Assembly (NCBI GenBank): GCA_018830005.1
Contig: JAHJTE010000001.1
Coordinates: forward strand, 1,332-65,331
Origin: Candidatus Omnitrophota bacterium
GTDB taxonomy: Bacteria > Omnitrophota > Gorgyraeia > JAHJTE01
Length of the DNA: 64,000 bases
Direction: 5' to 3'
Shown here: positions 2,779 to 52,304 of the stretch, piece after piece
Layout of the letters: every line of letters starts with the position of its first letter
Position numbering within the stretch: position 1 is the first letter of the stretch
Notes under the pieces: model-generated
What the model was told of the DNA's origin: nothing
The model's database searches: none
Seen by the model: only the letters and a program-made list of their open reading frames with translations
Program-made: the position numbers and the translations under genes

Positions 2779-2994
2779 TTATTTATATACCTCTATTGCC
2801 GCCTCCGGACAGATAATCGCACAGGCGCAACATCCTGTACAGGCCTTGCCTTTTTTCTCTAGGAATACCACAGGCTTATAGCCTACTTTATTTAGCGAAT
2901 GGCCTTTCTTTATATGTCCAAAAGGACAAAATACTATACACAGATTACATGCCTTACAACGTTTGCTATCAATCTTTATCTTTGCCATATGCAA
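2779..2994 (-). CDS. 2-oxoacid:ferredoxin oxidoreductase delta subunit (2x[4Fe-4S] ferredoxin)
   Basis: 71 aa with two CxxCxxCxxxCP clusters (CKACNLCIVFCP, CTGCCACAIICP). First gene of the operon. Confidence 0.75.
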   Translation of the reverse strand: MHMAKIKIDSKRCKACNLCIVFCPFGHIKKGHSLNKVGYKPVVFLEKKGKACTGCCACAIICPEAAIEVYK

Positions 2995-3046
2995 AAAGTT
3001 AGAGAATTATTGAGCTAGAACATATGTACCTATTTTTTATTTTTAT

Positions 3047-3553
3047 TTAACTTATGTCCACTCTTTTAATTCCCAGAATTCTAGAGAGGCGAATTAAAGT
3101 GAACATTGTGATATTTTTCTTTCCTTCTTCAACTCTGGAGATATCTGGTTGTTTCATACCTATTCTAAAAGCCAGTTGTTTTTGACTTAACCCTTTCTCG
3201 ACTCTTGCCTCTTTAATCAGTTTGCCGAATTCCCGAAAAAAAGCCGGAGTTTTTCCCTCAGCTCTTTTTTGTTTGTGTTGATACTCATCTAAAAGTTGTT
3301 CATATATTGTCTCCCACCAGTCTCTAAATTCCGATTGCCGTATACGTTTTACCCAGTAGACTCTAATCTTCGGCCATATTTTCACAAACTCTTTCTTGCT
3401 AATAACCGAAAAAAGCTCTTTCGGCTTATCACAACGCGATAAAAAAGTAGCCATTCGCATGGTAAATTTAGGGTGCTGAGAATTTTTTAGGATTTTTTTA
3501 GTTTCTCTTAGAGCCCCTTCTTTCAAATCCCAAAAGTATTTTGCAATAATCAT
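3047..3553 (-). CDS. XRE-family helix-turn-helix protein; an N-terminal domain of about 110 aa of unknown function precedes the C-terminal HTH
   Basis: The C-terminus LSQKQLAFRIGMKQPDISRVEEGKKNITMFTLIRLSRILG fits the Cro/C1 HTH_3 pattern. It overlaps the upstream nucleotidyltransferase gene by 4 nt (ATGA), implying translational coupling. Confidence 0.6.
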   Translation of the reverse strand: MIIAKYFWDLKEGALRETKKILKNSQHPKFTMRMATFLSRCDKPKELFSVISKKEFVKIWPKIRVYWVKRIRQSEFRDWWETIYEQLLDEYQHKQKRAEGKTPAFFREFGKLIKEARVEKGLSQKQLAFRIGMKQPDISRVEEGKKNITMFTLIRLSRILGIKRVDIS

Positions 3554-4260
3554 TCGATAACCTCTCTCATAAATTCTTTTATCTCATTCTCCAAATAAAT
3601 AATCATTTCCCTAGAGTTAAATTTCTTATCATAAATATCCATATCGATAAGTGCGAGCTTAAGATCTTGCCGAGAAAATGTTCGATACCAATGAATCATT
3701 CCTCTTTGTAATTGCGAAGAGACGTTCCGCAGGAATATATGCAATGGCTGTATGTTCTTTGAAAGCATATAAACATCAAACACATCACGCCCCTCCTTGC
3801 GACCTTCTATGATTTGCCTGCCTATCTCATCTATTTCAGGCCGAATCCCAGAAATGGCAATAATTTTCTGTAAATAGATATTTTCTACGCTATAAACACG
3901 GACTCCTTCAATTTTTCGTATCGCAGGATCTTGAAAAATAACATCTTCAACAAAATCAATCTTTAATGGTCTGCTAGAGCCCTTAACAGGTATAGTATAA
4001 AAACGAACCTTGGCCTTTCCGCCTGCCACAAACTCAGATTCCAAGTGTATCCTTTTATCTATATCTTTTCCAAATGCAGAGACCAAGTTATTTATTTCTG
4101 AAACCTCATATTTGTGTGAAAAGAAATCCAAATCTGCGGAAAAACGATGGTGTAAATAATACAATTCAAGGGCAGTGCCACCGGCAAGCCCAAAGTCATT
4201 AGCTTTCTTTGAAAAGACCTTTAAAATTTGATTCTGTGCTTTTCTGATTTTAGGATTCAT
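3550..4260 (-). CDS. Nucleotidyltransferase-fold protein, AbiEii/DUF1814-like (candidate toxin or abortive-infection effector)
   Basis: 236 aa. GGTALELYYLHHRFSADLDFF matches the hG[GS]-x(9-13)-DhD nucleotidyltransferase signature and the GGTAL...RFSxDLD pattern of AbiEii-type proteins. Confidence 0.55.
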   Translation of the reverse strand: MNPKIRKAQNQILKVFSKKANDFGLAGGTALELYYLHHRFSADLDFFSHKYEVSEINNLVSAFGKDIDKRIHLESEFVAGGKAKVRFYTIPVKGSSRPLKIDFVEDVIFQDPAIRKIEGVRVYSVENIYLQKIIAISGIRPEIDEIGRQIIEGRKEGRDVFDVYMLSKNIQPLHIFLRNVSSQLQRGMIHWYRTFSRQDLKLALIDMDIYDKKFNSREMIIYLENEIKEFMREVIE

Positions 4261-4276
4261 TTGGTTCTCAATAAAT

Positions 4277-4314
4277 ATAGGTTATAATCTATATATATAT
4301 AGATTATAACCTAT
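4277..4314. promoter_or_regulatory. 38-bp perfect palindrome containing TATAAT on both strands; putative operator/promoter of the nucleotidyltransferase-HTH operon
   Basis: ATAGGTTATAATCTATATA|TATATAGATTATAACCTAT; each half is the exact reverse complement of the other. It lies 17 nt upstream of the ATG at 4260. Confidence 0.5.
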
Positions 4315-4334
4315 ATTAAATATGTGTCAACTAT

Positions 4335-4358
4335 TTTCACAACTTATAAGTTGTGAAA
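4335..4358. promoter_or_regulatory. Second palindrome (TTTCACAACTTATAAGTTGTGAAA) in the same intergenic region
   Basis: 24-bp perfect inverted repeat followed by GCTGTTTTTG. It sits between the dxs 3' end and the nucleotidyltransferase promoter. Confidence 0.4.
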
Positions 4359-4440
4359 TAGCTGTTTTTGTACAATCAAGGTATTGAATAGCGGGGATTA
4401 ACCAGCCTAGCATCAAGAAGAAAGATCTGTTGTGCCACTT

Positions 4441-6306
4441 TTATATTTTATGTCTTATTTCACTTATCGTCTTGGCTATTTTCTCCGGACTCAATCCAAA
4501 TTTATCCAGCAAAACAGAGCGTGGGCCATGCTGTATGAAATCAAGCGGCAGACCCAAACATGTTACCTTGGCCTCTTCTCCTATTATATTTTTGACTCCC
4601 AAGCCAAAACCGCCATCAAGAATGCCCTCTTCAACTGTAATAATATGCTTGCTCTTTTTGGCTAAATCTTTATAAAAATCTTCCTGCAAGGGCTTTGCGC
4701 AACGTGCATTGATAAGGCCGATATCTTTGGCCTTGGGACCTAAAATCTTTATGGCCTCAAATGCCGGCTGTACCATGCTTCCCAGGGCCAGGATAGAAAC
4801 ATCTCCTGGCCTTTTTAAAACTTGAGGCCCTGCTATATTAGAGGTATCCTGAAACTCTTCAGGAAAATTAAAAACATCTGATTTTGGATAGCGAATAGCA
4901 ACAGGACAAGACTGACTAAAGGCAAACTCCAACATTGCCTCTAATTCTAGCCCATCCTTTGGTGCTAAAACAATAATATTGGGTATGGTCCTGAGAAAAG
5001 CAATGTCAAAGATGCCTTGATGCGTTACGCCATCTGAACCCACAATACCAGCGCGGTCAACGGCAAGTACCACGTTTAAATTTTGCAATGCCAGATCAAT
5101 GATAATCTGGTCATAAGAGCGCTGTAAAAAGGTAGAGTAAACAGCTACAACCGGCTTTATGCCTTTAGCAGAAAGCCCTGCGGCAAATGAAACAGCATGC
5201 TGTTCAGCTATGCCAACGTCAAAAAAACGACTCGGAAATTCTTTGCTGAATTTATCCAATCCTGTCCCCTCAGGCATTGCTGCAGTAATGGCTACGATTG
5301 ATTTATCCTTAGAGGCAAGTTGAATGAGCTTATTACTAAAGACCTCTGTAAATGTATGTTTTTTTGAAACAGAATTAGGGAGCGGTCTGCCATTCTGTTT
5401 ATTAAATTTATGGGCGCTATGAAATTTTTCTGGTTGGGCCTCTGCAGGAGCAAAGCCCTTGCCTTTTTTAGTCATTACATGCAAAAGCAGGGGGCCTTCA
5501 ACCTCTTTTAAATTATTCAGGGTTTGGATTAATTGTTCTAGATTATGGCCGTCCAAAGGACCAAAATAACGAAAGCCAAGTTCTTCAAAAAATATTCCCG
5601 GAACAATAAGGCCTTTTAATATCTCTTCAAAATGTAAAGACAACTTTACCAGGCGCGGGCCAATATGAGGGATGCGTAAACTTATAAATTTTTCAAGCGC
5701 AGATTTAAAACGATTATAAATAGGACGGGAAATTATTTTGTTTAGATAACCACTTAATGCTCCCACCGCCGGAGAAATACTCATCTCATTCGTATTTAAT
5801 ATTACTAGTAAATCTTTCTTTAAATGACCCGCATTATTTAAGGCCTCAAAGCACATACCGCCGCTTAGAGAACCATCGCCAATTATGGCGATTGTTTTTT
5901 CTTTGCCTTTTTTTAAGTCCCTGGCAGCAGCATAGCCTAATGCAAGAGAAACTGCTGTTGAACTATGCCCAACGCTAAATACATCATAAACAGATTCTCC
6001 CCGTAAAGGAAAACCGCTAATCCCTTCATACTGCCGCAGGCTAGAAAATTTATCTCTTCTTCCAGTGATAATTTTATGGGCGTAACACTGGTGGCCGACA
6101 TCCCAAACAATGACATCTTCTGGCGCCTGAAAGCAATAATGCAAGGCAATGGTCAACTCCACCACCCCTAGACTGCTTGCAAGATGCCCACCAGAAGAAG
6201 AAACAGCATCAATAATAATGCGGCGTATCTCGCTGGCTAAAATTGGCAGTTTCACACGTGGGATTTTCTTCAAATCCTCTGGGCTATTAACGGTCTCGAT
6301 TAACAT
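4441..6306 (-). CDS. dxs: 1-deoxy-D-xylulose-5-phosphate synthase
   Basis: 621 aa; thiamine-pyrophosphate motif IGDGSLSGGM and full-length transketolase-like architecture. Confidence 0.9.
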   Translation of the reverse strand: MLIETVNSPEDLKKIPRVKLPILASEIRRIIIDAVSSSGGHLASSLGVVELTIALHYCFQAPEDVIVWDVGHQCYAHKIITGRRDKFSSLRQYEGISGFPLRGESVYDVFSVGHSSTAVSLALGYAAARDLKKGKEKTIAIIGDGSLSGGMCFEALNNAGHLKKDLLVILNTNEMSISPAVGALSGYLNKIISRPIYNRFKSALEKFISLRIPHIGPRLVKLSLHFEEILKGLIVPGIFFEELGFRYFGPLDGHNLEQLIQTLNNLKEVEGPLLLHVMTKKGKGFAPAEAQPEKFHSAHKFNKQNGRPLPNSVSKKHTFTEVFSNKLIQLASKDKSIVAITAAMPEGTGLDKFSKEFPSRFFDVGIAEQHAVSFAAGLSAKGIKPVVAVYSTFLQRSYDQIIIDLALQNLNVVLAVDRAGIVGSDGVTHQGIFDIAFLRTIPNIIVLAPKDGLELEAMLEFAFSQSCPVAIRYPKSDVFNFPEEFQDTSNIAGPQVLKRPGDVSILALGSMVQPAFEAIKILGPKAKDIGLINARCAKPLQEDFYKDLAKKSKHIITVEEGILDGGFGLGVKNIIGEEAKVTCLGLPLDFIQHGPRSVLLDKFGLSPEKIAKTISEIRHKI

Positions 6307-13516: not shown

Positions 13517-13790
13517 ATGTCAATTTACCCTTGCGGGTAAAGAAGCACATCAACTTATGTACACGACAAAAAACCCCGCTTGTGTCGTCGGATAGGATGA
13601 TGTGAACCGGTCTTCCTAAACGTGGGTGCCATCTCATCTGCCCACAAGCAAGATGAAGTAAAGCTCCCTGGAAAGTTGTGTTGGTTCTACAAATATCAAG
13701 TCTATCCGGCGAACACTGCAGGGAATCTTTCAATCATCTTTAGTATAACATGCGGCCAACTAAATTGCAAGGGAAACTGCTTTTTAGCTT

Positions 13791-23916: not shown

Positions 23917-23991
23917 TGGGCGGTACTGGACTCGAACCAGTGACCTTCACGATGTCAACGTGACGCGCTAACCAGGCTGCGCCAACCGCCC
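23917..23991 (-). tRNA. tRNA-Val (anticodon GAC)
   Basis: GGGCGGTTGGCGCAGCCTGGTTAGCGCGTCACGTTGACATCGTGAAGGTCACTGGTTCGAGTCCAGTACCGCCCA; cloverleaf with a TTGACAT anticodon loop; no encoded CCA. Confidence 0.85.
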
Positions 23992-24032
23992 TAATATTAA
24001 TACTTTTTTTCAACTTCTCGTCATACAAGTAA

Positions 24033-24116
24033 TGCCGAGAGAGGGAGTCGAACCCTCACGCCCTTACGGACAAGGGATTTTAAATCCCTATTGTCTACCA
24101 GTTCCAACATCTCGGC
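24033..24116 (-). tRNA. tRNA-Leu (anticodon TAA), long variable arm
   Basis: GCCGAGATGTTGGAACTGGTAGACAATAGGGATTTAAAATCCCTTGTCCGTAAGGGCGTGAGGGTTCGACTCCCTCTCTCGGCA. Confidence 0.85.
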
Positions 24117-24133
24117 AATGTTAATTGTAATTT

Positions 24134-24208
24134 TGGAGGCGACGAGCGGATTCGAACCGCTGGATAAAGGTTTTGCAGACCTCCCCCTTGCCACTTGGGT
24201 ACGTCGCC
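24134..24208 (-). tRNA. tRNA-Cys (anticodon GCA), CCA encoded
   Basis: GGCGACGTACCCAAGTGGCAAGGGGGAGGTCTGCAAAACCTTTATCCAGCGGTTCGAATCCGCTCGTCGCCTCCA; anticodon stem GAGGT/ACCTT, loop CTGCAAA. Confidence 0.8.
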
Positions 24209-41102: not shown

Positions 41103-41176
41103 GACCCCATCGTCTAGCCTGGTCAGGACAAGAGCTTTTCAAGCTCTCGACACCGGTTCAAATCCGGTTGGGGTCG
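41103..41176 (+). tRNA. tRNA-Glu (anticodon TTC)
   Basis: GACCCCATCGTCTAGCCTGGTCAGGACAAGAGCTTTTCAAGCTCTCGACACCGGTTCAAATCCGGTTGGGGTCG. Confidence 0.85.
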
Positions 41177-44498: not shown

Positions 44499-44706
44499 TC
44501 TATTATGCATTCGGTAGCCAGACTATCCTAAAGTCTTTTAGGACCCTCAGCTTTGCGCCTACCCCTTACGGAGTGTTTGCCGTTTCGTGCTGCTAACCTT
44601 TAATTGTCAATTAAAGTATACCATAGAAAGCCTCAGAGTGCCATTTTTATTACTATTGTAACGCGTTATATTGTAATAAGTTATATAAATAAAAAAGATT
44701 GGATAA

Positions 44707-52232: not shown

Positions 52233-52304
52233 GCGCCTGTAGCTCAATGGATAGAGCAGTGGCCTCCGGAGCCATGTGTGCAGGTTCGACTCCTGCCAGG
52301 CGCA
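52233..52304 (+). tRNA. tRNA-Arg (anticodon CCG)
   Basis: GCGCCTGTAGCTCAATGGATAGAGCAGTGGCCTCCGGAGCCATGTGTGCAGGTTCGACTCCTGCCAGGCGCA. Confidence 0.85.

Follow-up and report, generated by a model that had tools for sequence, protein, structure and literature searches.

What kind of system do two overlapping genes form when a nucleotidyltransferase (NTase) of the AbiEii type comes first and a gene for a predicted DNA-binding partner follows it? The question is raised by a locus in a 64,000-nucleotide stretch of contig JAHJTE010000001.1 (assembly GCA_018830005.1) from a Candidatus Omnitrophota bacterium, a stretch referred to below as the window. All genes of this region lie on the minus strand, in the order xseA, xseB, dxs, the two-gene module and the por operon, with 180 nt of intergenic DNA between dxs and the NTase gene. 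A preliminary description had placed a candidate toxin–antitoxin (TA) or abortive-infection-like module between dxs and por, and the coordinates and sizes of its open reading frames (ORFs), as well as the 4-nt overlap between them, proved to be as described. The overlap is an ATGA shared by the NTase stop and the partner start, a sequence arrangement implying translational coupling. We consider it fairly likely, with a probability of roughly 0.6, that the module is a stand-alone two-gene TA-like cassette of the AbiE/MenAT (DUF1814) superfamily, reversed and re-partnered, which represses its own expression via a double operator.

The product of the first gene matches the Pfam family AbiEii (PF08843) with 69.4 bits against a cut-off of 22.5 (E=5.7e-19), is matched by 20 AbiEii models of PADLOC and contains the signature GGTAL...RFSADLDFF, so that the AbiEii-like NTase proposed from the letters alone was confirmed by profile search. 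Using the motif definitions for DUF1814 NTases of Dy et al. 2014 (PMC3985639), we judged invariance in an alignment of 31 homologues. Motifs I and II (A26-G27-G28 and, after 14 residues, D43-L44-D45), the K100-I-D102 strand that carries the third acidic site, the motif III lysine (K132) and motif IV (+DxxD, here R158-D159-V-F-D162) are all invariant and, judged by these motifs, the NTase is catalytically intact. Equally invariant is S41, located two residues ahead of the first catalytic Asp (S41-A-D43), where MenAT-type toxins have their Ser or Thr phosphoacceptor. Phosphoserine or phosphothreonine at the matching position inactivates MenT3 (S78, with D80), and the corresponding residues are S67 (with D69) in MenT4 and T39 in MenT1 (PMC7450476, PMC11375011). 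By sequence, the family profile reaches one solved structure, that of Helicobacter pylori JHP933 (4o8s, E=1.6e-6), to which all motifs align (G-x-TAL, RFS-x-DLDF, K-x-[DE], K and ARD-x-FD) and which reveals a family-specific insertion of ~11 residues between motifs III and IV; the MenT structures were out of its reach at E<=1.

The partner consists of two conserved parts joined by a variable linker. An XRE-type helix-turn-helix (HTH) at its C terminus and an unassignable N terminus of about 110 residues had been proposed, and both stood up to profile searches: Pfam HTH_3 matches residues 113–164 (E=1.5e-14), while roughly residues 1–105, in this protein and in 30 homologues, gave no match in Pfam, NCBIfam, PADLOC or PHROGs. 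PF24250, present in precomputed annotations of some homologues, was not used; hmmscan of 30 members at E<=10 did not reproduce it. The AbiEi family was not matched in Pfam or PADLOC by the partner or by the 30 homologues, in agreement with the earlier statement that the protein is not of the COG5340/AbiEi type. None of the type II XRE antitoxin models (HigA, MqsA or HipB type) was matched above its curated cut-off, and the scores that were obtained came from the HTH portion only (41 bits against 71.65 for the Y4mF/HipB-couple model, 23.9 against 47.7 for HigA and 20 against 61.8 for MqsA). We found no similarity of the N-domain to any known antitoxin.

Structure prediction, which had been suggested for this domain, was performed with AlphaFold2 and gave a predicted local distance difference test score (pLDDT) of 85 for the whole partner and, for the N-domain alone, a pLDDT of 85 with a predicted template modelling score (pTM) of 0.72. 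In the models, five helices make up the N-domain, and a disordered linker (about residues 95–103) leads on to the HTH. A fold search with the full-length model returned matches to the HTH only, the best being the controller proteins C.AhdI and C.BclI, and no relative of the N-domain. Its invariant residues include Y6, F7 and W8, S39, R40 and C41, W60 and P61, and R77, D78, W79 and W80. An exhaustive phmmer search with the N-domain against 1.84 billion cluster representatives matched only 60 clusters, and an XRE HTH directly followed it in eight of the ten longer matches scanned. Mean pairwise identity across 62 loci is 50% for the N-domain and 56% for the HTH, against 22% for the linker; the N-domain is as conserved as the DNA-binding domain, and the linker is not.

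Proteins identical to these are annotated in public data from a Candidatus Omnitrophica metagenome, and full-length homologues of each protein, at 60–78% identity, number in the hundreds. A scan for relatives, limited to one genome per species, returned 70 loci, most of them from Omnitrophota and the others from Nitrospirae, WOR-1, Elusimicrobia, Ratteibacteria, Firestonebacteria, Goldiibacteriota, Margulisiibacteriota and a Syntrophomonadaceae metagenome-assembled genome (MAG). In all 65 loci with DNA downstream of the NTase gene, this gene is directly followed by one encoding the N-domain and the HTH (confirmed by eye for L066), and the pairing spans Omnitrophota, Nitrospirae, WOR-1, Elusimicrobia, Firestonebacteria, Margulisiibacteriota and the Syntrophomonadaceae MAG. 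The two genes overlap by 4 nt in 50 of 62 loci and by 1 nt in a further seven, and the pairwise identity of the one protein rises and falls with that of the other (r=0.89). On these comparisons, the pair is an obligate and widespread two-gene unit. The Shine-Dalgarno sequence of the partner is stronger than that of the NTase in 45/62 loci (p=5e-5), and several loci have almost no leader ahead of the NTase start; both features fit the need for an excess of antitoxin and thereby lend the TA reading soft support.

The module is preceded on the coding strand by a sigma-70 promoter that matches the consensus at 12 of 12 positions (TTGACA, a 16-nt spacer and TATAAT); transcription is predicted to begin near 4296. 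A perfect 38-bp palindrome (4277..4314) with TATAAT on both strands had been described here. The palindrome and the two hexamers, at 4283-4288 on the plus strand and 4308..4303 on the minus strand, are real, but the length was underestimated, the 38 bp lying inside a perfect palindrome of 44 bp (4274-4317), which cannot be a product of chance. Within it, we recognize two predicted operator boxes sharing the 18-bp inverted-repeat consensus TATAGnTTATAAnCTATA, with 22 bp from centre to centre. The perfect palindrome owes its length to box 2 being, in this window, the exact reverse complement of box 1, and what looks like a single long site is a special, local form of two tandem 18-bp boxes. No further copy of the box pattern exists in the window. 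A divergent plus-strand promoter using the second TATAAT was considered and rejected, as the promoter scan gave no acceptable -35.

Alignment of the upstream regions of 66 loci revealed a common layout, with TTGACA, a first box from 15–16 nt after the start of this hexamer, the centre of which is the -10 (TATAAT or TATACT), and a second box 22–23 bp further on, in the leader. Two boxes at this spacing are present in 54/66 loci, compared with a mean of 0.015 in shuffled controls, and the claimed operator-like site thus gains strong comparative support as a double box embedding the -10. TTGACA occupies the same position in 49 of the 59 loci with clear boxes, and position counts show the outer TATAG and CTATA arms to be nearly invariant. 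The half-sites change together with the start of the recognition helix, as is expected if the HTH reads the boxes: MKQPDIS goes with TATAG...CTATA, QR[NL]IS with TATGC...GCATA (L058 and L060) and QQ[FM] with TACAAC...GTTGTA (L067 and L068), a covariation that rests on few lineages. With a spacing of 22 bp, both dimers would sit on one face of the helix, the first covering the -10 and the second the transcript start, which would be the classical arrangement for autorepression. Five loci (L054-L056, L062 and L069) display a variant operator–promoter geometry, in which the distance from the start of the -35 to the start of box 1 is reduced to 9 nt, compared with 15–16 nt elsewhere, and the -10 lies between the two boxes instead of inside box 1.

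A second, 24-bp palindrome had also been taken for an autoregulatory site. It exists as a perfect palindrome, but it is not conserved: it is absent from 65 other loci and from the syntenic L003, in which no more than ~20 nt lie between the end of dxs and the -35, and its candidacy as a second operator was rejected on this basis. Its core resembles the single operator palindrome of the distant loci L067 and L068 (ATACAACTTTTAGGTTGTAT), and it is terminator-like for a plus-strand transcript only. We regard it as probably not part of the module; it might serve as a site for a different XRE regulator, form a hairpin at which dxs transcription ends or be there by chance.

Outside the module, the neighbourhood was compared between genomes. 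The order xseA-xseB-dxs-module-porD-porA-porB-porG is identical in L003 (Omnitrophota MAG234; JBFMEB010000003.1, 640-7830), with identities of 69% for Dxs, 79% for PorB, 71% for the NTase and 69% for the partner; the cassette has therefore been inherited at the dxs/por junction and has diverged at a housekeeping rate. A junction free of the cassette, for which a search in relatives had been advised, was found once, in the distant relative L102 (164-3123; Dxs 48%, PorB 67%), where dxs overlaps porD and porA follows. A metagenome scan with Dxs yielded no relative closer than 53%, so the empty dxs-porD site is known from a distant relative only. In L086 (5989-11015), a tlyA-like methyltransferase gene and nadK fill the dxs/porD gap. 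The xseA-xseB-dxs...porDABG neighbourhood as such is conserved across Omnitrophota-like genomes, and the content of the dxs/porD gap varies. All other loci have unrelated neighbours, such as pyrD/pyrF beside EcoRII-C and a methylase, valS/nadC or methyltransferases. On an Omnitrophota-like contig (L071, 8325-10960), the immediate neighbours of the cassette encode an EcoRII-C endonuclease and a large LexA_DNA_bind/Peptidase_S24/N6_N4 methyltransferase fusion, followed by a GIY-YIG gene and a LAGLIDADG gene; no other context encountered resembled a defence island. Carriage by phages or plasmids was rejected, with no phage match and with plasmid matches limited to Campylobacter NTases of 28% identity that have different neighbours. 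These comparisons suggest a two-gene cassette that is complete in itself, moves between genomes from time to time and is then retained.

Downstream of the module, ~50 nt (2995-3046) separate the partner stop from the por ferredoxin gene, with no terminator detected there and a weak promoter-like site (9/12) at 3060..3032; transcripts started at the cassette promoter, which is predicted to be autorepressed, may read through and account for part of por transcription. Elsewhere in the window, we detected a c-di-GMP-I riboswitch aptamer (44510-44591, minus strand; 57 bits against a gathering score of 35), a match to 6S (SsrS) RNA just above its gathering score (13569-13727, minus strand; 48.4 against 46.4) and five tRNA genes (23917-24208 on the minus strand, 41103-41176 and 52233-52304 on the plus strand), three of them tightly clustered at 23.9-24.2 kb.

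Table 1. Features of the module and its flanks (positions in the window; sites and functions given as predicted or putative rest on the sequence).
Feature	Position	Strand	Remarks
dxs	4441..6306	-	upstream flank of the module
24-bp perfect palindrome, TTTCACAACTTATAAGTTGTGAAA	4335..4358		4 nt upstream of the -35
-35 hexamer, TTGACA	4325..4330	-	part of the 12/12 promoter
Operator box 1 (predicted), TATAGGTTATAATCTATA	4298..4315	-	contains the -10 TATAAT (4308..4303); conserved layout
Operator box 2 (predicted), TATAGATTATAACCTATA	4276..4293	-	within the predicted 5' leader; 15 nt between its end and the ATG
NTase gene, putative toxin	3550..4260	-	ORF of 236 aa
ATGA overlap, NTase stop/partner start	3550..3553	-	4 nt
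Partner gene	3047..3553	-	ORF of 168 aa
Partner N-terminal domain, aa 1-104, putative toxin-neutralising	3242..3553	-	five helices
Variable linker (~aa 93-107) and C-terminal XRE HTH (aa 108-165), then stop	3047..3241	-	putative operator-binding
por ferredoxin gene (por/OFOR operon)	2779..2994	-	downstream flank; then porA, porB and porG

If the module is a TA-like cassette, the NTase would most likely add nucleotides to the 3' acceptor ends of tRNA and so arrest translation, by homology with AbiEii and with MenT1, MenT3 and MenT4, which nucleotidylate tRNA 3' ends (PMC7450476, PMC10435456). The translationally coupled downstream gene would supply a bifunctional partner. Its C-terminal XRE HTH, acting as dimers, would bind the two 18-bp boxes spaced two helical turns apart; with one box over the -10 and the other in the leader, the operon would repress itself, as suggested by the conservation of the boxes and the covariation of helix and half-site. 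The N-domain, in turn, would contact the NTase and neutralise it, perhaps by sequestering it or by triggering auto-phosphorylation at Ser41, the invariant serine of the active site. Antitoxin-induced auto-phosphorylation is documented for MenA1/MenT1 and MenA3/MenT3 (PMC11375011), and auto-phosphorylation for AbiEi/AbiEii (bioRxiv 10.64898/2026.01.19.700257). We infer all three central properties of this scheme, namely the toxicity of the NTase, its neutralisation by the partner and the DNA binding of the partner.

Several observations weigh against a TA function, and the main alternative is that of a regulated enzyme. According to this explanation, the NTase is non-toxic or used only under certain conditions, for instance in RNA or small-molecule nucleotidylation or as a defence effector, and the XRE protein is only a dedicated transcriptional controller, comparable to the controller (C) proteins of restriction-modification systems in fixing when and how strongly the gene is expressed, its N-domain serving oligomerization or ligand sensing. 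The closest structural matches of the HTH are indeed controller proteins, a double operator with two-turn spacing resembles C-boxes, and the N-domain is unlike any known antitoxin. The module appears to have been stably inherited at one chromosomal site over ~30% protein divergence, and such persistence at the dxs/por junction with housekeeping-rate divergence is not typical of TA or defence cassettes, which turn over fast. Among the contexts examined, a single one (EcoRII-C and methylase) adjoins a defence gene, and phage matches and close plasmid matches are absent. The correlation of identities and the constant pairing may reflect the co-inheritance of an enzyme with its dedicated regulator, and the strength of the partner's Shine-Dalgarno sequence, which lies inside conserved C-terminal codons of the NTase, may be a by-product. 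Moreover, not all DUF1814 proteins are toxins or linked to an antitoxin, and some occur without one (PMC3985639). If the partner were a pure regulator, however, one would expect neither that its 4-nt translational coupling behind the target gene persists in >90% of loci nor that its N-domain is as conserved as the DNA-binding domain, and all experimentally tested PF08843 members with intact motifs I–IV (AbiEii, MenT1, MenT3 and MenT4) are growth-inhibitory (PMC3985639, PMC7450476, PMC10435456). We rate the regulated enzyme as unlikely, though less so than the other alternatives.

In a bolder version of the TA-like cassette, the N-domain would represent a new class of domains that control NTases; joined to an XRE repressor, it would neutralise a MenT-like toxin by a mechanism so far undescribed in this superfamily. 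Among the possibilities are that the N-domain is itself nucleotidylated, or that it is a sensor releasing both toxin and promoter on a phage or stress cue. We think this rather improbable; were it true, Omnitrophota and other uncultivated phyla would contain many copies of a new module serving defence or the response to stress.

A reversal of roles seems very unlikely to us. In MNT-HEPN modules, the NTase gene lies upstream of the toxin gene and overlaps it, and by analogy the upstream NTase would here be an antitoxin that covalently inactivates a toxic N-domain of the downstream protein, as in type VII systems. The gene layout fits this, as does the all-helical N-domain with its invariant Arg, Asp and Glu residues; the combination that characterizes HEPN-MNT (type VII) systems, a minimal MNT NTase with a HEPN toxin bearing an Rx4-6H motif, was not found in the module. 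Least credible of all is a decaying or inert remnant, domesticated or non-functional and with no current role, since its chromosomal position between housekeeping operons with no adjacent mobility genes is outweighed by two intact ORFs, invariant catalytic residues, a 12/12 promoter, perfect operator boxes and 69–71% identity to the L003 orthologues, a divergence at the same rate as Dxs and therefore indicative of purifying selection.

The TA-like cassette would be of interest in several respects. DUF1814 NTase toxins such as AbiEii and MenT are under active study, their modification of tRNA ends blocking translation and antitoxin-induced auto-phosphorylation switching them off. Few antitoxin types are known so far, and the present family would add a compact one, built from a new helical domain and an XRE HTH, with hundreds of natural variants in uncultivated phyla, a reversed gene order and a clearly readable promoter–operator. 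It would allow a test of whether control by auto-phosphorylation extends to antitoxins of unrelated type, and it provides a natural series of repressor and operator specificities, in which recognition helix and half-site change together.

AbiE, known from Lactococcus and Streptococcus agalactiae, was formerly assigned to type IV and is now proposed as a type VII TA or abortive infection system. The module resembles it in being a bicistronic operon, in its toxin-like protein of the same family (PF08843, motifs I–IV), in a partner that is a predicted DNA-binding protein with a second, non-DNA-binding domain and in two inverted-repeat sites at the promoter, AbiEi binding IR1 and IR2 (PMC3985639). 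The two conserved boxes overlap the promoter, and their sequences are unrelated to the AbiEi inverted repeats. The partner here combines a C-terminal XRE HTH with an unrelated second domain, whereas AbiEi has an N-terminal winged HTH, and the NTase is shorter (236 aa), with the 11-residue insertion between motifs III and IV. In canonical AbiE, the regulator gene precedes the NTase gene (Dy et al., PMC3985639); the inversion reported in the preliminary description holds, the NTase gene coming first in the window and in 65/65 related loci. With no AbiEi/COG5340 partner and this reversed order, the module is not canonical AbiE.

AbiEii-family genes accompanied by an XRE-type gene instead of abiEi have been counted in Pseudomonas aeruginosa genomes, as abiEii-HTH_XRE and abiEii-higA pairs, in a catalogue that describes no architecture (PMC9424990). 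The AbiEii–XRE pairing has thus already been noted in silico, and it is less novel than had been implied. The XRE partners of P. aeruginosa probably do not carry the N-domain studied here, given that its family is small (60 clusters). We found no description of this N-domain family, the fixed reverse order or the double operator in the literature searched.

The general plan of the cassette has parallels in MqsRA and HigBA, in which the toxin gene also comes first, the antitoxin joins an N-terminal toxin-binding part to a C-terminal XRE HTH and autorepression takes place at palindromic operators overlapping the promoter, as predicted here; the weak HTH matches of HigA, MqsA and HipB type belong to the same likeness. 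Their toxins, however, are RNases, not NTases, and their N-domains are unrelated, the zinc motif of MqsA being absent here. C-proteins of restriction-modification systems share the double-operator logic and provide the structural matches of the HTH (C.AhdI and C.BclI), but they are single-domain proteins of ~70–80 aa, encoded upstream of their target, and also activate transcription, whereas the partner has an extra 100-aa domain and a downstream gene. JHP933 (jhp0933, H. pylori; 4O8S/4OK0) is the closest solved structure by sequence and is similar in size (~230–260 aa); it is distantly related, lacks the 11-residue insertion and has no known partner of this type. The MenAT systems of Mycobacterium tuberculosis share the DUF1814 NTase and, two positions ahead of its first catalytic Asp, the conserved Ser/Thr, but the MenT genes lie downstream of their antitoxins, and neither an XRE HTH nor this N-domain is known from any MenA. 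They nevertheless provide a precedent for the control of a single toxin family by antitoxins of unrelated fold (PMC7450476, PMC10435456, PMC11375011).

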